Source: an uncultured Brevifollis sp.
Lineage (GTDB): Bacteria; Verrucomicrobiota; Verrucomicrobiia; Verrucomicrobiales; Verrucomicrobiaceae
Assembly: GCA_964642905.1 (NCBI GenBank)
Contig: CAZXPU010000002.1
Coordinates: 34,154-98,153, forward strand
Direction of reading: 5' to 3'
DNA: 64,000 nt
Positions 5,409 to 32,857 of this stretch are shown one piece after another (the stretch's first letter is position 1; each line of letters starts with the position of its first letter). Below the pieces are notes generated by a model. The model was not told the origin of the DNA, ran no database searches, and saw only the letters and a program-made list of their open reading frames with translations. The position numbers and the translations under genes were made by a program.

Positions 5409-6817
5409 GCGGACATCTTGGCCAGCCTCCTCTTCCTGCGCTCCAGCACCTGCTTGGCCACGCGCACCAGGTCCTCGCTGTCATAGGGTTTCGGCAGCAC
5501 GTCCGCAAACCCATGGGCGCTTGGCTGGAGCATGGCCGGATCCGAGCGGTTGCCGCTGGAGACAATCGCGTCCACTTCGGGATCCACCTGCCGAAGCAGC
5601 TCCATGGCACGCGCACCCCCCATGCCCAGGGGGATCGTCAGGTCGATCAGCACGAGGTCAAAAGGCTGCCGCGCCATCATCGCCTCGCTGTAGGCCTTCA
5701 CCGTGTCGCTTCCGTCCGCCGTCTCGAGGACCTCATATCCTTCCCTCTTCAGCGTCCGCACCATCAGGTTGCGCAGCAACACATCGTCCTCCAGCAACAG
5801 CACGCGCCCGGCATACGGCTTGGCGGAAGACGCGGGACCCGTGGGCGACTTCATGGCGGACGTCGTTCCCGGCGCCGTCCCGGCTCCGAAAACCGCCGCC
5901 GGAGCGGGCGCGGGAGCCTGCGGAGGGGATGCCAGCGCGTCCAGCAGCTCGCCCTTCAACTCATCGGCCGACCTCTGCCGCTGGTTCCTGTCCGGCTTCA
6001 GGGCACGGGTGATGATCGCGTCCAGCCGGGCGTCACAGGACACCAGGGAGGACGGCGGATGCCAGGCCCCCCGGGGGATCTGGCCGGTCAGCATCTGGTA
6101 AAACATCACCCCCAGCGCATAGATGTCCGCCCGGTGGTCGATCTCCGACTTGGCGTCGTACTGCTCGGGAGCCGCATAATCCGGCGTGCCCATCGCCATG
6201 TTCGTCTGGGTCAGCATCGTCGCCTGGGGATCCACCCGCTTCGCCAGCCCGAAGTCGGCCACCTTGATGCGGCCGTCCTTGGAAAGCAGGATGTTCGCCG
6301 GCTTGATGTCACGATGCACGATGTCCTTGGAATGCGCATAGGACAGGGCGTCACAAACCTTCACCAGGACCTCGGTGGCACGCATCGGCGACAACGGCCC
6401 CGCACTGAGCGACTGATGCAGGTCGATGCCCTCGATGTACTCCATCACATAATACAGGTAGTCCCCGACGATCCCAAAGTCGTACACGCTGACGATGTTC
6501 GGATGGTTCATCTGGGCAAGCGACTGCGCCTCGCGCCGGAAACGCTGCCCGTAGGCATAGTCGGTGCCGTGCTGCCGATGCAGGATCTTGATCGCCACGG
6601 CGCGCTCCAGGTTCAGCTGCCTGCCCCGGTAAACCGCCCCCATGCCGCCCTGCCCGATCATCAGGTCAAACTGGTAGATCCCGCCCGGCATCATCTGCGT
6701 CAGCTCCTGCGGAGTCGGATAGGGCGTCGGCGTCGTCCAGCCGGCAACCCCGTCGGACACCGGCGTCACATGCGCAGGCGGCGTGGTTTTTTTGCCGAAG
6801 GAGAAGAGTCGTCTCAT
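5405..6817 (-). CDS. Hanks-type Ser/Thr protein kinase with C-terminal response-regulator receiver domain
   Basis: GQGGMGAVY, VAIK, HRDIKPAN, DFG, GTPDYAAPE; then REC: LLLEDD, LIDLTIP, VSSG, PKPY. Confidence 0.92.
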   Translation of the reverse strand: MRRLFSFGKKTTPPAHVTPVSDGVAGWTTPTPYPTPQELTQMMPGGIYQFDLMIGQGGMGAVYRGRQLNLERAVAIKILHRQHGTDYAYGQRFRREAQSLAQMNHPNIVSVYDFGIVGDYLYYVMEYIEGIDLHQSLSAGPLSPMRATEVLVKVCDALSYAHSKDIVHRDIKPANILLSKDGRIKVADFGLAKRVDPQATMLTQTNMAMGTPDYAAPEQYDAKSEIDHRADIYALGVMFYQMLTGQIPRGAWHPPSSLVSCDARLDAIITRALKPDRNQRQRSADELKGELLDALASPPQAPAPAPAAVFGAGTAPGTTSAMKSPTGPASSAKPYAGRVLLLEDDVLLRNLMVRTLKREGYEVLETADGSDTVKAYSEAMMARQPFDLVLIDLTIPLGMGGARAMELLRQVDPEVDAIVSSGNRSDPAMLQPSAHGFADVLPKPYDSEDLVRVAKQVLERRKRRLAKMSA

Positions 6818-6895
6818 GGGTGGGTGCCGAAGGCCTTGAATGTCCCGGAGTCCCGCGATGACGCAAGCCTCAATCCTCCGGATCCGTCGCCGGCC

Positions 6896-8482: not shown

Positions 8483-8533
8483 GTTTTGACTCGACTTGAA
8501 CTTGGACAGACAATACGGGCAGAAGGTCCGCCG

Positions 8534-9487
8534 ATGACGCCTGAAATAACCGCCAAAGACTCCATCCCGCAAGTTCCGCCACGGCGGAACACCGGCCTGC
8601 ATGGCGCCTTCTGGACCCGCTGCCTGCTGCGGTTCATGTGTTTTGTACCGACAAAATTGGCCCTCCTCCTCGTCCGGCCCGTCACCCTGGTCATCTACCT
8701 CCTCGCCCCCCCCCAGCGCCAGGCCATCCAGGCCAACCTCCGCGCTCTCCGCCCCGACTTCGGCCCGGTCGAACGCTGGTGGGCCGGCTACCGCGTCTTC
8801 CTCAACTTCGCCCTCACCTACCTCGACCGTCTCTGGTCCATGCACTTCGGCCGGGAAGTGACCTGGGATGTGCCCAACACCGAACGCTTCACCTGCCTGC
8901 GCGACCACCCCGGCGGCGTGCTGATCTTCACCATCCACAGCGGCAACTACGACATCGGCGCCAGCCTCTTCGCCCGCGAGTTCGGACGCCGCCTCCACAC
9001 CGTCCGCGCCCCCGAGCAAACCGAGGAGCTCCAGCGCCTCCGCGAAAAGGAACTGCGCCAGACCGAGCAGGAAAACCCCAGGCTGCGCGTGCACTACAAC
9101 TTCGGCGACAACCACCTCGGCCTCGAGCTCTGCCGCGTCCTCATGGAAGGCGATGCCGTCGCCGTCCAGGGCGACCGCGTGCTCTCCGCCGTCTCCCCCG
9201 TCGCCATGACCTGCGGCGGCCGTGTCTATCAGCTCCCACGCGGCCCGCTCGTGCTGGCGGAAATCTCCCGCGTGCCCTGCTACCCCATCTTCCTCGAACG
9301 CACCGGCTGCCTCCGCTACCGCATCCATGTCGGCGAATGCTTCCACGACGGCACCAACCGCCTGCGCAGCGATGACATCGGCAGGCTCTGGCTGCCTGTG
9401 ATGCATCAGCATCTCCAGGAGCACTGGGACCAGTGGTTCGTCTTCGAACCCCTGGTCAGCCTTCAGGAACCCGGCCCCTCAGCGTGA
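8534..9487 (+). CDS. LpxL/HtrB-like (lipid A lauroyl / lysophospholipid) acyltransferase
   Basis: HSGNYDIG (HxGNWE-like), AVQGDR, FGRGPL-like LPRGPLVLA, QWFVFEP C-terminal motif; start 8534 inside the 7310..9487 ORF. Confidence 0.8.
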   Translation: MTPEITAKDSIPQVPPRRNTGLHGAFWTRCLLRFMCFVPTKLALLLVRPVTLVIYLLAPPQRQAIQANLRALRPDFGPVERWWAGYRVFLNFALTYLDRLWSMHFGREVTWDVPNTERFTCLRDHPGGVLIFTIHSGNYDIGASLFAREFGRRLHTVRAPEQTEELQRLREKELRQTEQENPRLRVHYNFGDNHLGLELCRVLMEGDAVAVQGDRVLSAVSPVAMTCGGRVYQLPRGPLVLAEISRVPCYPIFLERTGCLRYRIHVGECFHDGTNRLRSDDIGRLWLPVMHQHLQEHWDQWFVFEPLVSLQEPGPSA

Positions 9488-10972
9488 CGCGGCCCCCGCC
9501 TTGCGCCTCGCCGCTTGTTTCGCCGAAGCCTCCTCCGCACCAAGCGCCAGCCCGTTGTCCAGCGGCATCGACTGATGCCAGGCCAGAAGCGCCCGCGTCA
9601 TCCGCTCGACGACCCCGGCATTCGCCGAAGCCATATTCTCCGCCTCACCGCGATCCTTGCTCAAATCATAGAGCTGCGGCTTCGTGCCGTCGTATTCACA
9701 GAGCAGCTTCCACGAACCCTCGCGCATCGCCAGGTCAGGCAGCCGCTCCGGCAGCGACGGAGAGGCCGTCTTCCGATCCGGCGGACGCCTCCAGAAAATC
9801 GGCGCCCTGCGCGAGGCCTCCGACTTGCCAAGCAGAACCGGCGCAAGATTTTCACCATCCAAAGCCGTCCCAGCCGCATCAACCCCAGCCACGGCCAGCA
9901 GCGAGGGCACCAGGTCAAACGCGGCAAAGACCGACTCCGTGTTGACGCCACCCGCCTTCGCCGGATCGATCAGGCCCGGCCCCCAGACGATCAACGGCGA
10001 CCGCGTGCCTCCTTCATAGAGCGTCGTCTTGGAGCCCCGGAACGGCCCCGCGCTGCCCGCCCCGGGCTCCGGGCCGTTGTCCGAGCAGATCAGCAGCAGC
10101 GTGTTGTCACGCAGCCCGGGCGTGGAGCGAAGGTGATCGAAAAGCCTTCCAAACTGGCGGTCCATCGCCTCCAGCACGGCCAGGTATTTGCCACGCTTGT
10201 CCTCCGCCCACTTCTCCACCGTCGGCCACCACGGACCATGCACGTCGTCCGGCCAGAGGTTGATGTAAAAAGGCCTGCCGGCCGCCGCCGCACGCTTCAT
10301 GAAAGGAATCGCCGCATTCACAAATCCCCCCGTGATCTCGCTGCGCTGCATCCACACCACCGGGCCGCCCAGGCGCTCCGCATCCTCCCAGATGCGACCG
10401 GGCTCCTTGTCGCCCGGCTTCCTCGTCATCGGCAGCAGCTTGGGCCCCATGCCCTCAAAGTTGGTCAGGCTCTCGTCGAAGCCGTAGGCGCTGATCGGCG
10501 GCGCGTCATCGACGTCACGCTGCCCGCCCAGGTGCCATTTGCCAAAGTGCCCCGTGGCATAACCGCCCTGCTTCAGCAGCCGTGCCAGCGTCGGCGCCTT
10601 CGGATCCAGCCACTGCGCCACGCCACGCCTCTCGTTCTGCGCCCGGTTGTCCAGATAGGAGCTGATCCGCCAGCGCTGCGGATACTGCCCCGTCGTCAAC
10701 GCGCAGCGTGAGGGCGAGCAGATGGGCGAGTTGACATGAAAGTCTTCAAACCGGATCCCCTCCGCCGCGATGCGGTCGATGTTCGGTGTCTTCGCGTCCT
10801 TGTTGCCAAAGCAGGAAAAATCCCCCCACCCCATGTCGTCGATGAAGACCATCACGATGTTGGGCTGCCCCTGCTTCGCCTGGGCCAGGCCAGCCGGCTC
10901 AACCACAGCAAACAGCAGCCCAAGCTCCAGCATGAGCGACAGCTTTTTCATCATGGGTTGGATCATGGTCAT
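9479..10972 (-). CDS. Cys-type sulfatase (arylsulfatase family), secreted
   Basis: PNIVMVFIDDMG, CSPSRCALTTG (CxPxR), GKWHLG, SDNG, LYEGGTRSP. Confidence 0.92.
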   Translation of the reverse strand: MTMIQPMMKKLSLMLELGLLFAVVEPAGLAQAKQGQPNIVMVFIDDMGWGDFSCFGNKDAKTPNIDRIAAEGIRFEDFHVNSPICSPSRCALTTGQYPQRWRISSYLDNRAQNERRGVAQWLDPKAPTLARLLKQGGYATGHFGKWHLGGQRDVDDAPPISAYGFDESLTNFEGMGPKLLPMTRKPGDKEPGRIWEDAERLGGPVVWMQRSEITGGFVNAAIPFMKRAAAAGRPFYINLWPDDVHGPWWPTVEKWAEDKRGKYLAVLEAMDRQFGRLFDHLRSTPGLRDNTLLLICSDNGPEPGAGSAGPFRGSKTTLYEGGTRSPLIVWGPGLIDPAKAGGVNTESVFAAFDLVPSLLAVAGVDAAGTALDGENLAPVLLGKSEASRRAPIFWRRPPDRKTASPSLPERLPDLAMREGSWKLLCEYDGTKPQLYDLSKDRGEAENMASANAGVVERMTRALLAWHQSMPLDNGLALGAEEASAKQAARRKAGAASR

Positions 10973-24665: not shown

Positions 24666-25336
24666 ACACACAGCTCACGCTCCTCATCCTCGCCTCATCC
24701 CTCGCCTTCGCCGCAGATCCGACGCCTCCCGTCACGCAAACCTGCCAGCCGGACAAGCTCATCGCCGCGGAGGCTTTTGAGAAGCCGGAATCCTTCGCCA
24801 AAGAAAAGCAGCCGGGCACCGACGGCTGGCGCGGCGGCATCGGCACCTGGAGCATTCGCGACGGCGCGGCCTACGCAGTGCAGGAAGGCCCGAGTGAAAA
24901 GCGCCCGAACGGCCACGAGGCCGTCTGCGAGCACCTCGTGGACCTCGGCGACTATGTGCTGACCGGTGAGTTCAAGCTCGGCGCGTCGCCGCAGATCGGC
25001 TTTGTCTGCCGCGACACCCACCAGCCTAACCATCACCAGGGACGGATCGTGATCACTCCCACCGCCCTCTGGATTCAAAAGATGAGCGGCATCTCCAAGG
25101 AAACGCGCCGCGAGGAGCTGAAGAAGATCGAGGTCAAGATCGACCCCGGCACCTGGCACCGCATCACCGTTGAAATCTGCGGTGATCACTTCCTCGCGAA
25201 GATCGACGACCACGTGCTCGAAGCCAGCCACGAGCGCTTCAAGGACCGCAAGGGCCGCATCGGCTTTGTCGCCCGTGGCGAAGGCGCCCAGTTCCGCAAC
25301 ATCGCCCTGTGGAGCGCGAAGCCAAAAGGTTCCTAG
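24662..25336 (+). CDS. DUF1080 (3-keto-disaccharide hydrolase-like) lectin-fold protein, secreted
   Basis: Signal peptide; GTWSIRDG, DYVLTGEFK, WHRITVEICG, GRIGF, AQFRNI. Confidence 0.7.
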   Translation: MNTQLTLLILASSLAFAADPTPPVTQTCQPDKLIAAEAFEKPESFAKEKQPGTDGWRGGIGTWSIRDGAAYAVQEGPSEKRPNGHEAVCEHLVDLGDYVLTGEFKLGASPQIGFVCRDTHQPNHHQGRIVITPTALWIQKMSGISKETRREELKKIEVKIDPGTWHRITVEICGDHFLAKIDDHVLEASHERFKDRKGRIGFVARGEGAQFRNIALWSAKPKGS

Positions 25337-25418
25337 CCACAAGGGAACCCAGGGACCACAGAGGATCCGATGGTTTCTTTTTGAGTTCTTGGGTGACCTG
25401 CTCAAACCAATCAGGTTC

Positions 25419-25816
25419 ATGAAAACCATCTTTGAACTCTGTGACGTCATTCGTGCAACCTCCTATGCCATCCATGAATATCACGGCCAGGGTCACCTGG
25501 AGAAGGTGTATGAAAATGCATGGGCACATCGGCTGACGAAGGCGGGCTTGAAGGTTCATCAACAGCATCCAATCAAGGTTATGATGAGGATGGCACCGCC
25601 ATCGGAGACTACCTTGCCGACCTTTTGGTCGATACACGCCTCATCATTGAGCTGAAGGCTGTCAGGGCCATCGCTGACGAGCACGTGGCTCAAATCCTCG
25701 GATACCTGAAATCGTCACGCATCGAACACGGCCTGCTCATCCATTTTGACAGTTACCGTTTCCAAATCAAAAAATACATCCTGACACCCAAGGCAGCCTC
25801 CGACCGGCAACTCTAA
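25419..25816 (+). pseudogene. GxxExxY protein (PD-(D/E)xK nuclease-like), frameshifted
   Basis: GHLEKVYENA in frame 1, then YDEDG..GDYLADLLVD..IIELKAV..QILGYLK in another frame; one T missing at about 25580 (aaggtt[t]atgatgag). Confidence 0.85.
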
Positions 25817-25925
25817 ACCTCCTGCCGATTTTGTGTTCCATGCGTTCTTTCGCGGCCATCCCTCATTTCATCCTGGTACTTTTTCCACCGGACGCCTACG
25901 CTCACGATCTCCTCTTTCCTGAACC

Positions 25926-27362
25926 ATGGAAACTCCTCCGTCACCTCCCGCCTCTTCCCGCCGTCATTTCGTCCAACAAGCCGCCGCGGCGGGGTTGGGC
26001 TTCAACTTCCTTCCGGCCTACCTGACCAGCGCCCGCGCAGCCGACAATCCGAAGCTGCCGCCGAGCCGCCGCATCAACCTGGGCTGCATCGGGATCGGCG
26101 GACGTGCGGGCAGCGTCATTCCCGGCCTCACGGCGGGCGGCATCGCCACCCCGGTGGCTTTCACGGACGTGGACTTCGTCACCGCCAAGGGCGTGGAGAA
26201 GAACCTCAAGGCCTTTCCGGACGTGAGGCGCTTCCATGACTTCCGCGAGATGCTCGACAAGATGGGCAAGGACATCGACGCCGTCAGCGTGGTGACGCCG
26301 GATCACACGCACTTCACCGCCGCGATCAGCGCGATGGCCCTGGGCAAGCATGTCTATGTCGAGAAACCGCTGACGCACACTTTTGAGGAGGCCGAAATCC
26401 TCATGCGTGCCGAGAAGAAGTTCAAGGTGGTCACCCAGATGGGCAACCAGGGCCACACCTCCGCCGGCGCTGAACAGTTCAAGCAGATGCTCGCCGCAGG
26501 CATCGTCGATGACGTCGTGAAGATCGACGCGTGGAAGTCGCCCTCGCTCTGGTTCATGAACGCGGCCGAACGCATCCAGGGTTATCCACCGGGCGAGCCG
26601 ATGCCCGAGTCCCTCAAGAGCTGGGACCTCTGGTGCGGACCTCAGGAGGTGAAGCCCTTCAGCAAGATGTATCACGCCTTCAACTGGCGCGGCTTCCACC
26701 TTTATGGCGGCGGCATGTTTGGCGACTGGGGCGCGCACATCATTGACTTCGCCCATCATCACCTGAAGCTCGGCCTGCCCACGCGCATCACGCCCCTGGC
26801 GCTCGCCGATTACAACCAGGTGAGCTATCCGCTCAGCTCGGACATCCGCTTCGAATTTCCGGCCCGTGGCGAAAAATTGCCCGCCGTGGAGCTGCATTGG
26901 AAGGCGGGCGGCGACATCAAATTCGACATCGAGGAGAAGTATGGCGACCCGGGCCCCGACGGCAAGGTGGTGATCCCGAATCCCGGCAACGCCGGGTCGC
27001 TCCTGCACCGCAAACAAGGCGACTACCTCGTGCAGCGCGGCTCCCACGACCGCCACTCGCTCGTGTATCCACGAGCCAAGATGGTGGAGTTCAAGGACGC
27101 GATGGGGCTGCATCCCTTGAAGCGCAATCACTTCGACAGTTTCATCAATGCCTGCATGGGCGAAGGCATGACGGAATCGCCCTTCAGCATCGCCGGCGCG
27201 CTCACGCAGGTGCTCAATCTCGGCACCATCGCCGAGTATCTCAACGTCGACCTGAAGTTCGACCCGCAGACAAAACGCTTCATTGGCAATGATGAGGCCA
27301 ACGCCCGTCTCGCCGGCCCGGCTCCGCGTGCCGAATGGGCGGACTGCTACAAGCTGGCGTGA
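25926..27362 (+). CDS. Gfo/Idh/MocA family oxidoreductase, Tat-exported
   Basis: SSRRHFVQ signal, GCIGIGGR, TPDHTH, HVYVEKPLTH, WDLWCGP, GDWGAHIID. Confidence 0.92.
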   Translation: METPPSPPASSRRHFVQQAAAAGLGFNFLPAYLTSARAADNPKLPPSRRINLGCIGIGGRAGSVIPGLTAGGIATPVAFTDVDFVTAKGVEKNLKAFPDVRRFHDFREMLDKMGKDIDAVSVVTPDHTHFTAAISAMALGKHVYVEKPLTHTFEEAEILMRAEKKFKVVTQMGNQGHTSAGAEQFKQMLAAGIVDDVVKIDAWKSPSLWFMNAAERIQGYPPGEPMPESLKSWDLWCGPQEVKPFSKMYHAFNWRGFHLYGGGMFGDWGAHIIDFAHHHLKLGLPTRITPLALADYNQVSYPLSSDIRFEFPARGEKLPAVELHWKAGGDIKFDIEEKYGDPGPDGKVVIPNPGNAGSLLHRKQGDYLVQRGSHDRHSLVYPRAKMVEFKDAMGLHPLKRNHFDSFINACMGEGMTESPFSIAGALTQVLNLGTIAEYLNVDLKFDPQTKRFIGNDEANARLAGPAPRAEWADCYKLA

Positions 27363-27473: not shown

Positions 27474-29537
27474 TCAGAACACCCTGGCAGTTGCAGATGA
27501 CTGCCCGGCCCGCGAGTGAACCATCACCGTGATGATCACACCGGCAAGCACAAGCCCGAGTGCCAGGACATAAGTCTGCCTCATGCCGTGAGCCACGGCT
27601 TCAGGAGCCGACGCCTGCGCCTCCGCTCCACCGGACACCATGGCAAACAGAGCGGTCATGACGGAACTGCCGGTGATCAATCCAAGGTTGCGTGACAGGT
27701 TCAGCAGCCCGGACATCAACCCGCGTTCGGAAGCCTCGGCCGACGCCATCATGAACGTGGTGTTTGCCGTCTGAAAAGTCGCATAACCCGCCGTCAGGAC
27801 GACCAGGGGAATGACCTGGCCGGGGATGCCTGATGACATGGGAAGCAGAGCCAGGGCCAGGGCTCCCGCCCCGATAAGCAGCAGCCCGGCGAGGCTCATG
27901 ACGTGCGTGCCATGCCGGTCCACCAGCCGCCCGGCAGGCACGCCCATGAACGCCACAACAAGAGGTCCCACAGACAAGACGAGCCCCACCTTTGCCGGAG
28001 GCAGATGCAGCGCCCGGGACAGGTAATACGGCCCGACCACCAGGGTGGTCATCAAAACAGTTGCGACAAGCAGGCTCAGCACGAGCCCGGCCTGACGCTC
28101 CCTGGAACGCAGGACCCTGGCTGGAATCCAGGGAGATGAAGAAACCCGGTCCCTTTTCACAAACGCAGCCGCCAGAACCGTTGAAGCCAGCAGCAGCAGT
28201 CCATTGACCAGGCCCGGCCGGCCCTTGCCCAGCGACATGGACAAGGCATAGAACACAATCGTCACGATCAGCAGCATCATCCCCGGATGATCCAGGGGCT
28301 TGGGGTTCTCCACCTTGCGGCCCAGGTCCTTCGGAATTCCCCAAAGGATCAGAAGCCAGGCGATCAGGCCCAGGGGCAGGTTGATGAAAAAGGTCATCCG
28401 CCAGCCAAAGGCGGAAACCAGGACGCCGCCAAGCAGCGGCCCTGCGGCCGTGCCAGCAGCAGACATGGCGCCCAGCAACCCCATGGCCCTGCCGCCTTTT
28501 CCCGCGCCAACGGCATCCCCCATCAGAGCCGCCGCCATCGCCATCATCAAGGCAGCACCGGCTCCCTGCAGGGCCCGGGTCAGAATCAACATCGGCAGCG
28601 ATGGCGCCAGGCCTGCCAGCAGGGAGGCTCCGACAAACATCAAGATACCCGCCAGCAGCAGACGCCGTCTCCCCGCCAGGTCGCCCAGCCGACCGGCTCC
28701 CGCAATCAAGGCCGTGATGGAAATCAGGTAGGCAGTCACAACCCACTGCACCTGCTGAAGTGACGCCGCAATCTCCTGGCTGAGGACGGGCAGGATCAGA
28801 TTGGCGGAGCTGGTGCCCAGCGACGGCAGCAACACGGCCAGGGACAGGCCCGCCATCCGAAACCGTCGGCGCTGCATATCCGGACGGTCCGCTTTCCGGC
28901 CTGCTGGCTGCAGCAGCCAGACTGCCTGCTGGGCCGGGCAGCTGTTTTTCAGCCCACCCGTCATTGTCTCCCGCTCCAGGAGGAGGATGTCATGCGATGC
29001 CTCGTAATGACGCCGGATCTCCGGCTCGCGCACGTCAAAGGGTGGCCCAGGCATCTGGTCCTGCTCATACTCATAGCTGATCAAAAGCTGGGGCGCTCCC
29101 CGCGTGATCTTCACCAGATGACTGGCATAAGAAGCCCGCATCTCCTCCGGCAGCGCCACCAGGGCCGCCCGGTCATACACGGCATCCACCGGCCCCAGCA
29201 CCTCCGGGTTCAGGTCAAAGATGTCCCCTGCAAAAATGTCGATTCCTTCAGCGCTGTAGTGCACCAGGCTGCCTTTTTCCTGCCGCACCGGCTCAACCCC
29301 GAGCCCGGCGAACAGCTGCTCCACGGCCTCCTGGCTGAGCTCGGCTCCGGCAACCCGCCTCCCCTTGCCAAGCAGCCAGGCGATGTCCAGGCTCTTGCCG
29401 CACAACGGAACGAACACCCGGCCGCCGGCAGACGGAGACAGGGCGTCGAAATGCCTGACCAGCATTGGGTTCGCCTGTGTTTCGTGGAAGCGGGTCTGCC
29501 CGCTTCTCCAACGTTGATGCCAGAATTCAGCCTTCAT
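27474..29537 (-). CDS. tpm: Thiopurine S-methyltransferase fused in frame to a 14-TMS DHA2 MFS efflux transporter
   Basis: TPMT part about 28878-29537: FWHQRW, VFVPLCGKSLD, GAELS, GDIFDL, YDRAALVALP. MFS part 27474-28877: GRLGDLAGRRR, RALQGAG, GTAAGPLLGG, FFINLPLG. No stop between them. Confidence 0.85.
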   Translation of the reverse strand: MKAEFWHQRWRSGQTRFHETQANPMLVRHFDALSPSAGGRVFVPLCGKSLDIAWLLGKGRRVAGAELSQEAVEQLFAGLGVEPVRQEKGSLVHYSAEGIDIFAGDIFDLNPEVLGPVDAVYDRAALVALPEEMRASYASHLVKITRGAPQLLISYEYEQDQMPGPPFDVREPEIRRHYEASHDILLLERETMTGGLKNSCPAQQAVWLLQPAGRKADRPDMQRRRFRMAGLSLAVLLPSLGTSSANLILPVLSQEIAASLQQVQWVVTAYLISITALIAGAGRLGDLAGRRRLLLAGILMFVGASLLAGLAPSLPMLILTRALQGAGAALMMAMAAALMGDAVGAGKGGRAMGLLGAMSAAGTAAGPLLGGVLVSAFGWRMTFFINLPLGLIAWLLILWGIPKDLGRKVENPKPLDHPGMMLLIVTIVFYALSMSLGKGRPGLVNGLLLLASTVLAAAFVKRDRVSSSPWIPARVLRSRERQAGLVLSLLVATVLMTTLVVGPYYLSRALHLPPAKVGLVLSVGPLVVAFMGVPAGRLVDRHGTHVMSLAGLLLIGAGALALALLPMSSGIPGQVIPLVVLTAGYATFQTANTTFMMASAEASERGLMSGLLNLSRNLGLITGSSVMTALFAMVSGGAEAQASAPEAVAHGMRQTYVLALGLVLAGVIITVMVHSRAGQSSATARVF

Positions 29538-29613
29538 GATGATGTGTGTTGCCAGCCGGCCGCCCGCACGTTGGGACACCGGTTGTGAGGCTGCGGTAGC
29601 CCCGGTCTTGAAA

Positions 29614-29657
29614 GGCGTAAAATGCATGGATTGCACTTGATTCATGCATTTGACGCC
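29614..29657. promoter_or_regulatory. Inverted repeat, probable LysR operator in the divergent promoter
   Basis: GGCGTAAAATGCATG-N14-CATGCATTTGACGCC, 14/15 complementary. Confidence 0.6.
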
Positions 29658-29683
29658 ATGCCTGAACCGGACAGGTTCACCGC

Positions 29684-30592
29684 ATGTCGAAACCCGACCT
29701 CAACCTGCTCTTCACCCTCCAGGCCCTGCTGGAGGAAGGCAGCGTGGCAAAGGCCGCACAACGCCTGCATCTCAGCGCCTCCGCCATGAGCCGCTCGCTG
29801 GCAAGGCTTCGGGCGACCACCGGCGACCCCCTGCTGGTTCGAGCGGGTCGCGGGCTCGTGCCCAGCCCGCGCGCCATTGAGCTCGCAGGACGGATCAAAC
29901 AGGTGGTCCAGGACGCCGAAGCCTTGCTGCAACCCGAGGCGAGGCTGGATCCAGGAAGGCTCGTGCGCCAGTTCACCCTGAGGACCAGCGAAGGTTTCGT
30001 CGAAAACTTCGGGCCCGCCCTCGTTTCCAGGATCAGCGGCCAGGCACCGGGCGTGAAGCTGTCGTTTGTGCCCAAGCCAGACAAGCAGGGCACCGCCTTG
30101 CGAAACGGCTCCGTTGACCTTGAAACAGGTGTTGTCAGCACGGAGACAGGCCCGGAGATCCTCACCCAGGCCCTTTTTCAAGACCGCCTCATCGGGGTCG
30201 TCAGGAATGATCACCCTTTGCGTTCACGCAAGATCACGGCGGCTCGCTACGCAGGCTCCCGCCATGTGGCCGTGTCTCGCGACGGCGACCCCTGGGGACC
30301 TGTGGACGACGCCCTGCAAAACCTGGGGATGCAAAGGCAGGTTGTGGTGATGGTCGGCGGTTTCGCCACGGCCATCTCCCTCGCCAGAACGTCCGACATG
30401 ATCGCCACCGTGCCGGAAAGACACACGGGCGTGCTTCGGGATGGCATGCACAGCTTCCGCCTGCCCTTCCCCACCGCCCCGTTCACCGTCTCCATGCTCT
30501 GGCACCCGCGCCTCGACGCCGATCCCGCGCACCAATGGCTGCGGGGCTGCGTGCGCGAAGTCTGCACCGCCAGAACTCATGATCATGCTTGA
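29684..30592 (+). CDS. LysR family transcriptional regulator
   Basis: DLNLLFTLQALLEEGSVAKAAQRLHLSASAMSRSLARLR, GDPLLVRAGRGLVPS; C-terminal substrate-binding domain. Confidence 0.95.
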   Translation: MSKPDLNLLFTLQALLEEGSVAKAAQRLHLSASAMSRSLARLRATTGDPLLVRAGRGLVPSPRAIELAGRIKQVVQDAEALLQPEARLDPGRLVRQFTLRTSEGFVENFGPALVSRISGQAPGVKLSFVPKPDKQGTALRNGSVDLETGVVSTETGPEILTQALFQDRLIGVVRNDHPLRSRKITAARYAGSRHVAVSRDGDPWGPVDDALQNLGMQRQVVVMVGGFATAISLARTSDMIATVPERHTGVLRDGMHSFRLPFPTAPFTVSMLWHPRLDADPAHQWLRGCVREVCTARTHDHA

Positions 30593-30618: not shown

Positions 30619-30676
30619 CCGTTGAAATTGACGCCACCACCCAGCCCCGCCCATGCTGAAAAACCTGATCTTCCTC

Positions 30677-32857
30677 ATGAAACCCACCCTTTATTCCCTG
30701 CTGGCTCTGCCTTTGTTCCTTGGCAGTCAGCTCAACGCCGAGGACTGGGGCGCCTACCAGATCGTGCCCGTGAGCGCCCCGGATTTTGCCCTCGAGGTCG
30801 TGGGTGACACGGTCTCCATCCAGAAGCCCGAGGATCAACCTAACCAGAAATGGATCATCCAGTCGCACGGCGGCGGCTGGAACTCGATCATGCCCGCCTC
30901 GCAGCCAGGCCTCGTGCTCACGGTGGATGGCGCAGGAACAAAGAACGGCACGAAGCTCATCCTCGCCAAGGACAACAAGTCGGATGCGCAGCTCTGGTCA
31001 CTCGCGAGGCAGGAAAACGGCGCCTACGCGCTCGAACCGAAGCACGCGCCCGGCATGGGTCTCGATCACCTGGGCGGCAGAAAGGAGCCCGGCGCGAAGG
31101 TCGATCTCTGGCAGCACAAACCCGGCGACGGCCATCTGCAGTGGTTCATCCGTCCGCTCGCGGGCAGCAATGTCGTGCAGCCGTCCCCGGCTGCTCCGAG
31201 TTATACGCCGCCTGCGATGGATCCCAAAGACATCCAACAAGGGCGCATCGAGACCTTCCAGTTCACGCAGAGCAAGATCTTCCCCGGCACGGTGCGCGAG
31301 GTGACCGTCTTCATCCCGGCGCAATACGACGCGAGCAAACCCGCCTGCGTTTATGTGAAGACGGATGGCTACAACCCGCGTGAGAAGGCGAACCTCGAGC
31401 TCGCCATCGCCACCAAGGAGATGCCGGTGACCGTCGGCGTCTTCGTGCGCCCCGGCGAGCTGCCCGCGCCGATGAAAGGCACCGCACCGCGCCGCAACCG
31501 CGACTTTGAATACGACGGCGTCAGCGACAACAATGTGCGCTTCTTCGACGAGGAGGTGCTGCCCTTCGTCGCGAAGCAGTATCAGCTCAATCTCAGCACC
31601 AGCGGCAACGACCGCTGCATCGTCGGGGGCAGCAGCGGAGGCATCACGGCCTTCGCGGCGGCCTGGCACAAGCCGGAGGCCTTCAGCCGCGTGTACTGCG
31701 TCAGCGGCAGCTTTGTCGCGTTTCGCGGCGGGCATGAGTTTCCCACGATGGTGAGGAAGTTCGAGGCACGGCCCATCCGCGCCTACCTCACCACCGGCAC
31801 GCGCGACATGGAAAACGTCGCGGGAGATTGGTTCCTCGTCGATCAGGAGATGGACAAGGCACTGAAGTTTTCCGGTTACGACTACCAGTTCCGCATCATC
31901 GACGGCGGCCACGGCGCGGGGTATGGCGACGAATGGCAGGAGGCCATGGCCTACCTCTGGAAAAACTGGCCCGAGCCGGTGAAGGCGGGCCCCAGCGCCC
32001 CGCGAGCCCAGGAGATCCTCATTCCCGGCGAGGACTGGCAGCTCGCAGGCGAAGGCTTCAAAAGCACCCGCGGAGCCTCCACGGCAGCGAACGGTGAGAT
32101 CTTCTTCGCCGACACCTCCGCCGATCAAATCCATCGCATCGGTCTGGATGGAAAGATCAGCGTCTTCGCTGAAAAAACCGGCAACGCGCACTGCGTGACT
32201 GTCGCAGCCGATGGATCACTCTACACCATCTCGGAAAAATCCGGCCAGCTTCTGCGCTACGACAACACGGGCAGGTCCAGCGTCGTTTTGGAAGGCATCC
32301 TCGGCCACAGCATCCTCGCGCATCCGAACGGCAGTCTCTACGTCACCGACAACGACGCCAAAAAGCCCGTCAACGGCGGCAGCGTGTGGCTCATCAAGGA
32401 CGGGCGGAAGAAGCAGGTCGATGCCGGACTCAAATTCGCCACCGGCATGGCCTTCCGCCCCGACCAATGGCTGCTCAGCGTTGCTGAAGGCCACTCCAAA
32501 TGGGCCTGCAGCTACCAGGTCGCCGAGGACGGCACGCTCATCCACAAGGAGCGCTTCTTCCACCTGCACGTTCACGACTGGGACGACGATGCCGGCGCGG
32601 AATGCCTCTGCTACTCCCAGGAGGGCCGCCAGTTCATCGCCACCAAAAGCGGCATCCAGATCAGCGCCGACGACGGCCCCACGCAGGTCATCCTCACCGT
32701 CCCCGGCAAAGGGCGCGTCACCGCCGTCGCCATTGGCGGCAGGGACAAGGACACCCTGTATGCGTTCTGCATGAACAAGATCTGGAAGCGCAGGATCCAG
32801 CAGCACGCGCTGGGCGCCTGGAGCCCCTGGACGAAGGTGACGCCGAACAAACTCTGA
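30677..32857 (+). CDS. Secreted ricin-B lectin + esterase (Fes-like alpha/beta hydrolase) + SMP-30 propeller fusion
   Basis: NQKW/AQLW/LQW QxW-like repeats; GGSSGG nucleophile and GGHG; propeller with GEIFFAD, GSLY, GMAFRPD, VAIGG. Confidence 0.8.
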   Translation: MKPTLYSLLALPLFLGSQLNAEDWGAYQIVPVSAPDFALEVVGDTVSIQKPEDQPNQKWIIQSHGGGWNSIMPASQPGLVLTVDGAGTKNGTKLILAKDNKSDAQLWSLARQENGAYALEPKHAPGMGLDHLGGRKEPGAKVDLWQHKPGDGHLQWFIRPLAGSNVVQPSPAAPSYTPPAMDPKDIQQGRIETFQFTQSKIFPGTVREVTVFIPAQYDASKPACVYVKTDGYNPREKANLELAIATKEMPVTVGVFVRPGELPAPMKGTAPRRNRDFEYDGVSDNNVRFFDEEVLPFVAKQYQLNLSTSGNDRCIVGGSSGGITAFAAAWHKPEAFSRVYCVSGSFVAFRGGHEFPTMVRKFEARPIRAYLTTGTRDMENVAGDWFLVDQEMDKALKFSGYDYQFRIIDGGHGAGYGDEWQEAMAYLWKNWPEPVKAGPSAPRAQEILIPGEDWQLAGEGFKSTRGASTAANGEIFFADTSADQIHRIGLDGKISVFAEKTGNAHCVTVAADGSLYTISEKSGQLLRYDNTGRSSVVLEGILGHSILAHPNGSLYVTDNDAKKPVNGGSVWLIKDGRKKQVDAGLKFATGMAFRPDQWLLSVAEGHSKWACSYQVAEDGTLIHKERFFHLHVHDWDDDAGAECLCYSQEGRQFIATKSGIQISADDGPTQVILTVPGKGRVTAVAIGGRDKDTLYAFCMNKIWKRRIQQHALGAWSPWTKVTPNKL

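Follow-up and report, generated by a model that had tools for sequence, protein, structure and literature searches.

The clearest precedent for detoxification by 'methylate and export' is the pairing of ArsM with ArsP, in which methylation yields a species that is expelled by a dedicated permease (PMC7229686). Here, we describe a gene that joins a methyltransferase domain of the thiopurine S-methyltransferase family (TPMT; Tpm in bacteria) to a transporter of the major facilitator superfamily (MFS) in one polypeptide, next to the divergent gene of a LysR-type regulator. It lies within positions 27474-30592 of a 64,000-nucleotide stretch of DNA from an uncultured Brevifollis sp. (Verrucomicrobiaceae; contig CAZXPU010000002.1), which was analysed whole and is called the window below. 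ArsM and ArsP differ from this fusion in their protein families, in the element handled and in being under ArsR control, and should be taken as an analogue only; no ArsM/ArsP fusion of this kind has been described in the literature searched.

A second analogue is the tehAB operon, in which TehA is a membrane protein and TehB an S-adenosylmethionine (SAM)-dependent methyltransferase. To our knowledge, TehB does not belong to the TPMT family nor TehA to the MFS, and the teh genes are separate and are not LysR-controlled, so that this, too, is an analogue only. The likeness to the fusion lies in the placing of a SAM-dependent methyltransferase and a membrane transport protein in one unit (tehAB is cited in PMC10128142).

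The nearest characterised pair of a LysR-type regulator and an MFS transporter is SxtP/SxtR of Acinetobacter baumannii and Klebsiella pneumoniae, where a LysR activator is likewise divergent from an MFS efflux gene, across a spacer of ~130 bp (146 bp in the window) with a LysR box demonstrated by electrophoretic mobility shift assay (PMC13436341). It has no enzyme partner, and its binding box is a different one: the sequence TTAGGGTATGAAA, 54 bp from sxtR, is unlike the operator described below. SxtPR was considered as a characterised member of the same LysR-MFS family and set aside, in a comparison by layout and box only, as the reported box differs. Known bacterial Tpm proteins, such as those of P. 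syringae (1pjz) and Aromatoleum (AzCIB_0135), share with the fused domain the family score, the fold and the invariant motifs, including L55 and R123, but they are soluble, stand-alone proteins of ~215 aa, whereas the Tpm of the fusion is covalently tethered to a transporter and has a dedicated predicted LysR operator. Taken singly, the elements of the locus are of known kinds: the two domains, the LysR layout and the logic of 'modify and export'.

The earlier note on this DNA held that a complete TPMT domain runs without a stop into a complete transporter, and this stands. Positions 27474..29645 (-) form one uninterrupted open reading frame (ORF) of 723 aa counted from the first ATG. Pfam assigns aa 37-227 of it to TPMT (E 1.9e-58) and aa 267-659 to MFS_1 (E 1.6e-54). 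The junction, for which verification had been advised, is identical or indel-free in four independent public assemblies (X1, X3, X5, X6). These are a 23.8-kb contig, sequenced to depth 36, that matches the window letter for letter; a second contig, of 1.3 kb, obtained from a different sample; the genome of an isolate, which differs by 87 substitutions; and a plastisphere metagenome. The only indels in the isolate (X5) are a compensating +1/-1 pair at 27605/27610, 5 nt apart and close to the 3' end of the MFS part, which alters only one or two codons.

The fusion also occurs in other genomes. A search of 5.8 billion protein clusters yields 15 that contain both Pfam domains at full length, at 46-94% identity, and a divergent LysR is present beside all fusion clusters checked. 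An exhaustive HMMER search of 1.84 billion representatives clustered at 50% identity returned just two proteins that span both domains; the architecture is therefore genuinely uncommon. Relatives at 94% aa identity share the synteny of the window (Ricin-esterase, LysR, fusion, GFO oxidoreductase), and distant fusions retain only the LysR-fusion pair and not the wider synteny. A syntenic contig also carries PSD/PSCyt genes, which are typical of Planctomycetes and Verrucomicrobia; with the naming of the deposited fusion P0011 (below), they make a host in the Verrucomicrobiaceae probable. There are weak signs of transcription across the junction (X26); the RNA found amounts to two contigs of 151 nt from a related strain and a single metatranscriptome contig, too thin to prove a full-length transcript. 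The fusion is complete in both domains and is under purifying selection. That the architecture is undescribed is true of papers, since none was found in the literature searched on a Tpm-DHA2 fusion, its recurrence, its operator or the dioxygenase-fold partner introduced below, and literature on tpm with MFS or LysR, on tellurite efflux and on holomycin/gliotoxin S-methylation likewise yielded no coupling of Tpm to export. It is not true of databases, in which one such fusion (P0011), from a Verrucomicrobiaceae metagenome-assembled genome (MAG), is already deposited under the mere name 'thiopurine S-methyltransferase, partial'.

The start codon of the fusion should be chosen with care. It is almost certainly M37 of the long ORF (29537), which gives the predicted product of 687 aa that the earlier note had put forward, because most homologues begin at the equivalent MKAEFWHQRW and because the first ATG, at 29645, is enclosed by the operator; the latter rules out the 723-aa reading. 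An internal start at 28877 (M221) had also been suggested; M221 is missing even in the 94%-identical relative P0001, and the family does not conserve M228 either, so that the alignment of fusion homologues holds no conserved internal start.

In fusion numbering, the Tpm part ends at VWLLQ210 and is followed by a linker of ~18 aa (about 15 in the earlier note) and the first hydrophobic helix. The junction between the two parts is in register across the fusion alignment; the linker differs between homologues in its sequence and in its length of 15-60 aa, and keeps its richness in Arg and Lys. In unfused MFS proteins, the cytoplasmic N-terminal tail is its counterpart, and the stop and start codons of the split loci map here. 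The N-terminus of the MFS domain is cytoplasmic and the linker before the first transmembrane helix (TM1) is Arg/Lys-rich, so the Tpm domain faces the SAM pool. An AlphaFold2 model built from 62 sequences (pLDDT 87, pTM 0.73) has an alpha/beta methyltransferase fold at residues 1-211 and low confidence only at residues 215-219, with the TM1 helix beginning at 219, and would thus place the Tpm domain directly on TM1.

Table 1. Features of the fusion locus, in window coordinates; residues are numbered from the preferred start.
Feature	Position	Strand	Remarks
tpm-mfs fusion gene	27474..29537	-	687 aa + stop; start is M37 of the longest ORF
Tpm/TPMT domain, cytoplasmic, SAM-dependent S/Se/Te-methyltransferase family	28908..29537	-	residues 1-210
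Basic linker PAGRKADRPDMQRRRFRM	28854..28907	-	residues 211-228, ~18 aa
14-helix DHA2-like MFS domain	27474..28853	-	residues 229-687 + stop codon
45-bp LysR operator with 14/15 inverted repeat	29614..29658		predicted from conservation
LysR-type regulator, 302 aa	29684..30592	+	HTH_1 + LysR_substrate (Pfam); divergent from fusion

The Tpm domain is a bona fide member of its family. It scores 246.9 bits against a cutoff of 223.2 with the NCBIfam equivalog TIGR03840 ('TMPT_Se_Te'), over model positions 1-213 of 213, and the nearest solved sequence in a search of the Protein Data Bank (PDB) is P. syringae Tpm 1pjz (E 4e-35). Foldseek matches the soluble part of the model to human and mouse TPMT with TMt 0.78-0.81 and to P. 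syringae Tpm with 0.72. FWHxRW, VPLCGK, L55, DRAALVALP (which contains R123) and GPPF are all invariant in an alignment of 16 fusion proteins; L55 and R123 have been named as key residues of tellurite- and selenite-methylating bacterial TPMT (PMC10128142).

The MFS domain has 14 hydrophobic segments by hydropathy and 14 long helices in the AlphaFold2 model, and its nearest curated NCBIfam subfamily is DHA2/EmrB. The best Foldseek matches of the membrane part are EmrB, MHAS2168 (an Rv1410 homologue), EfpA, QacA and NorC (TMt 0.80-0.88). With these antiporters it shares the 14 helices, the fold and what we take to be motif A (GRLGDxxGRR) and antiporter motif C (GTAxGPxxGG; GxxxGPxxGG in TM5), both invariant here; it differs from them in having only ~20% identity and an added N-terminal enzyme domain. 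In alignments of 16 and of 62 sequences, G362, T363, G366, P367, G370, G371, G282, G285 and D286 are invariant, and R283 and R290 are at least 90% conserved.

Other members of this MFS subfamily carry additions at their ends. Four proteins that are 47-52% identical to the MFS domain (P0123, P0139, P0173, P0026) bear a C-terminal AlgE-like outer-membrane porin (Pfam Alginate_exp), separated from the MFS part by a hydrophobic segment like a signal peptide, and further members carry DUF2490 or DUF2306. A single ORF that joins an inner-membrane pump to an outer-membrane barrel is topologically odd; its product may be cut at the internal signal peptide, and the cargo may be hydrophilic or anionic.

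The divergent LysR gene reported in the earlier note is there (Table 1), as is the 14/15 inverted repeat, GGCGTCAAATGCATG-N14-CATGCATTTTACGCC, which is exact at 29614-29657 and is part of a conserved 45-bp element, separated by 25 nt from the start codon of lysR and by 76 nt from that of the fusion. In 12 aligned intergenic regions from four different architectures (5 fused, 3 split, 1 tpm-only and 3 MFS-only), 24 positions in ~45 bp are invariant, giving the pattern TGGCGT-N6-CA-N3-AT-N4-TGCAA-N4-TGC-N3-TT-N-CG-N-C. The 45-bp pattern is unique in the window, where chance would yield 0 matches, and in a contig scan it matched at least 120 metagenome stretches exactly. A homologous LysR (47-84% identity) adjoins it in every listed metagenome match with enough left flank, and the distance from LysR to operator is 20-45 nt in most of the metagenome loci among the matches listed. 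The LysR of the window is 63-77% identical to those of all fused, split, tpm-only and MFS-only modules examined, which exceeds the conservation of the fusion protein itself (50-57%) in those loci. Judged by this conservation, the inverted repeat is the putative operator of a larger regulon, kept across phyla, and LysR control of the fusion is supported by that conservation.

The nearest solved relatives of the LysR, from a PDB sequence search, are DntR, PA0477, PcpR and MexT, which we take to be a subgroup that responds to aromatic or electrophilic organic compounds. With its best NCBIfam match, BsrA (NF050187), it scores below the equivalog cutoff (164.5 bits against 480), and the regulator does not belong to the selenium-associated LysR family NF040786 (35 bits against 250). 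A scan for sigma-70 promoters found no promoter-like site, though Verrucomicrobial promoters may not fit the consensus, and a terminator scan found no convincing terminator.

What lies behind the operator varies from locus to locus. Targets were classified in those 98 of the listed metagenome matches that had 700 nt or more of flank, and in 77 of these the target was an MFS gene of the same type as in the fusion (MFS-A) alone. The other loci had a second DHA2 type alone (MFS-B; 6), tpm with MFS-A (3), a protein of ~181 aa with MFS-B (8), with MFS-A (1) or alone (1), or neither (2). A tpm gene or domain thus stands between operator and MFS in a minority of loci, split or fused, and the suggestion that tpm entered an MFS-LysR pair fits this distribution.

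The ~181-aa protein takes the exact position of tpm, as the first ORF to the right of the operator and between it and the DHA2 pump (loci L097, L111, L121, L141, L156, L166, L173, L181, L184 and L209). It has no match in Pfam or NCBIfam and about 3,100 homologues, all named 'hypothetical'; profile searches, those of the PDB included, yielded next to nothing, and comparison of folds alone was informative. Its predicted structure (pLDDT 90) returns thiol dioxygenases as all of its best 50 Foldseek matches (E 2e-11 to 1e-8, TM ~0.7), among them plant cysteine oxidase (PCO), 3-mercaptopropionate, P. aeruginosa thiol and mercaptosuccinate dioxygenases, ADO and CDO, and its invariant HDH...H (HxH...H) aligns with the 3-His metal-binding site of mercaptosuccinate dioxygenase. 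Because Tpm and this protein interchange between one operator and one class of exporter, the substrate would be expected to carry a thiol; two unrelated enzymes that would both modify -SH groups in one slot are the strongest clue to the substrate class, as far as the modelled fold goes.

The same module occurs with its two genes separate. In a scan of one genome per species, three loci have a divergent LysR, tpm and the MFS gene directly behind it: two Nitrospira MAGs and Massilia rubra CCM 8692, with tpm of 211-214 aa and MFS of 480-490 aa. The Massilia genes overlap stop to start as GTGA, and those of Nitrospira abut as TAA-ATG in one MAG and are 2 nt apart in the other; three additional split loci come from metagenomes. 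Because the module is found as adjoining split genes, the fusion can be read as a 'Rosetta stone' of a conserved operon, its linker being the presumed cytoplasmic N-tail of the unfused pump. In one of the Nitrospira MAGs (L009), a COMT-type O-methyltransferase gene (Methyltransf_2 plus dimerisation domain; 8516-9646, +) follows the split pump gene, and at a tpm-less Pseudomonas LysR-MFS locus (L006/L007) a small cupin gene (Cupin_2/Cupin_7; 6428-6895, -) is convergent to the MFS.

The fusion also appears to have arisen more than once. Thirteen fusions group together as a single clade in the trees of both domains (12 for the MFS, where P0014 is truncated), and P0015, P0012 and P0013 fall outside it. 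By pairwise identity, the MFS of P0015 is 79% identical to its nearest unfused relative, against 57% to the main fusion clade, and its TPMT is 69% identical to the nearest unfused tpm, against 56%; the MFS of P0012 (73% against 58%) and of P0013 (67% against 54%) likewise sit nearer to unfused proteins. The nearest unfused MFS to P0015 (P0057) belongs to a LysR-MFS pair without tpm, and P0015 itself carries the same divergent LysR and operator. The simplest reading is that the genes were fused independently at least twice, and probably three or four times.

The association of tpm with this MFS is labile. Of the 80 best tpm loci found in species genomes, no more than 3 have this MFS. Of two Nitrospira MAGs that are syntenic for LysR, tpm and the type I restriction gene hsdR, L010 has the MFS gene between tpm and hsdR and L049 does not; on this comparison, the pump was apparently gained or lost recently within one genus. 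That the split genes adjoin or overlap in other phyla and that the fusion recurs support a functional coupling of methylation and transport.

We consider it somewhat probable that the locus is an inducible 'modify and pump out' unit, in which Tpm methylates and the MFS exports a low-molecular-weight thiol or selenol toxicant. LysR, bound to the 45-bp operator in the divergent promoter region, would sense the toxicant and would probably activate the promoter of the fusion gene. The 687-aa product would sit in the inner membrane with 14 helices, its short basic tether holding Tpm at the cytoplasmic mouth of the transporter. There, Tpm would use SAM to methylate the -SH (or -SeH) of the small toxicant, blocking its reactivity, and the DHA2-type domain, working as a proton antiporter, would export the methylated product and perhaps the parent compound as well. 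Activation by LysR, outward transport and the passage of one compound from one domain to the other are, with the identity of that compound, what we infer from these parts.

As to substrate class, a low-molecular-weight organic thiol is the most likely, with selenium or tellurium species a second choice. The methylate-and-export unit that the earlier note proposed is upheld as far as genetic coupling goes, by split operons and recurrent fusion; its emphasis on tellurium and selenium is questionable, because in other genomes a dioxygenase-fold protein occupies the same slot and because the LysR relatives presumably sense organic aromatics. Both observations speak for an organic thiol no less than for selenium or tellurium.

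Several points weigh against the proposed unit. MFS-only and tpm-only modules exist (L049 is an example of the latter), so each part can work alone. The domain trees were made by neighbour joining and carry no bootstrap or other support values, and the claim of independent fusion therefore rests on the pairwise identities. The MFS domain scores 170.4 bits with TIGR00711 (DHA2/EmrB), below the cutoff of 230.2, which is why it is called DHA2-like here and not a certified member. Its TM1 has Gly241, nearly invariant in the 62-sequence alignment of the subfamily, where aligned EfpA sequences have the Asp of the lDxTvxnvAlP motif, and its coupling or the charge of its substrate may be atypical as a result. 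The thiol-dioxygenase assignment of the ~181-aa protein would follow from a predicted fold and a weak sequence match (E 0.0026 in a PDB profile search), with no family model behind it. For every member, the tie between module and substrate is one that we infer from sequence. The sole demonstrated physiological activities of bacterial Tpm concern selenium and tellurium species, and their end products, dimethyl selenide and dimethyl telluride, are volatile and need no pump (PMC10128142).

Among the rivals, detoxification of selenium or tellurium survives best, and we hold it to be possible though unlikely. Tpm would methylate these elements and the MFS would export oxyanions or partly methylated anions (methylselenol, methylseleninate), by the logic of ArsM with the methylarsenite pump ArsP, or of tehAB. 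Volatile end products sit poorly with such a pump, as does the presence of this MFS at so few of the best tpm loci. The regulator, too, has relatives that we take to sense organic aromatics and falls outside the selenium-associated family, and the alternative enzyme of the slot has a thiol-dioxygenase fold, a class without known selenium or tellurium role. The rival draws its strength from the 'Se/Te' equivalog cutoff that the TPMT domain passes, from bacterial TPMTs that raise tellurite and selenite tolerance and make methylated selenium and tellurium (PMC10128142), and from the metalloid precedent of ArsM/ArsP for methylation followed by export (PMC7229686). The missing TM1 Asp and the MFS fusions to AlgE-like porins would fit its anionic substrate.

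Alternatively, the two domains may provide independent resistances under one regulator, the pump expelling the unmodified toxicant and Tpm methylating the remainder, with the fusion a neutral loss of the stop codon between abutting genes that brings no mechanistic benefit. Sharing of the LysR and operator by MFS-only and tpm-only modules fits this, as do the poorly conserved linker sequence and the ease with which a single mutation can fuse genes that overlap (GTGA) or abut. A neutral accident would hardly be expected to arise at least twice, probably three or four times, or to persist while members of the main clade diverged to about 50% identity, with a linker that is always short and basic and, in the model, an enzyme set directly on TM1; we consider this rival rather improbable.

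The MFS might instead import a substrate, or exchange SAM for S-adenosylhomocysteine, and so feed the methyltransferase, for example toward a volatile or signalling product and not for detoxification. The direction of transport cannot be read from sequence and the curated DHA2 cutoff is not reached, which leaves some room for this idea. With antiporter motif C invariant, all close structural and sequence relatives exporters (EmrB, QacA, EfpA, NorC and the Rv1410 homologue) and regulator plus pump only, an arrangement typical of efflux, as the commonest form of the module, it is very hard to credit. Finally, an assembly or sequencing artefact, or a recent frameshift pseudo-fusion, is refuted by the identical contig at depth 36, the three further indel-free assemblies and the fifteen diverged clusters.

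The base composition of the locus should be viewed against that of its surroundings. A dip in guanine-plus-cytosine (GC) content to about 58-60%, against about 67% in core genes, had been taken in the earlier note as a sign of a horizontally acquired islet. This did not hold: 27474-30592 has 64.0% GC, against 64.2% in the window (44th percentile of 2-kb windows), and only the 146-bp intergenic spacer is at 58%. GC at third codon positions is 0.76 in the fusion and 0.78 in lysR, within one standard deviation of the window genes (0.81 +/- 0.07). Neither GC nor codon composition thus speaks for an islet or for recent transfer. A plasmid search returned only stand-alone tpm matches, with no match to the fusion or the MFS at E<=1e-30.

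Two neighbours in the window can be mentioned. A low-GC patch at 25000-26000 (54-57% GC) holds a PDDEXK_3 (PF13366) gene, 25437-25816 (+), that is split over two frames, with profile positions 3-53 in ORF 25170..25655 and 53-113 in ORF 25520..25816. The gene is likewise in two pieces (89 + 38 aa) in the syntenic contig of a 94% relative; it is a frameshifted pseudogene or an error. Directly downstream of lysR, at 30653-32857 (+) and in a position conserved in close relatives, is the gene of a 734-aa secreted-looking protein with Ricin-type lectin repeats, an esterase and an SMP-30/gluconolactonase beta-propeller.

The wider reading of these data, which we offer tentatively, is that the fusion is the extreme form of a widespread and undescribed regulon, made up of a LysR with its 45-bp operator, a DHA2 exporter and a variable enzyme slot filled by Tpm or by a new family of thiol-dioxygenase fold. 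The natural role of bacterial Tpm is unsettled, and methylation of selenium and tellurium has been seen mostly through heterologous expression or over-expression (PMC10128142). If the regulon reading is true, it would supply the long-missing physiological role of bacterial Tpm and would be a bacterial counterpart of phase II/III metabolism directed against natural thiol toxins. The question of what Tpm is for becomes testable through its recurrent fusion to one exporter, an operator kept across phyla and its replacement by a dioxygenase-fold protein, and the inducer could be sought with the pair of operator and regulator as a biosensor. The many 'MFS transporter / LysR regulator' pairs that carry the operator, and the unannotated family of about 3,100 members, also gain a lead to their function, and the fusion itself offers structural work a compact case of an enzyme coupled to a transporter.

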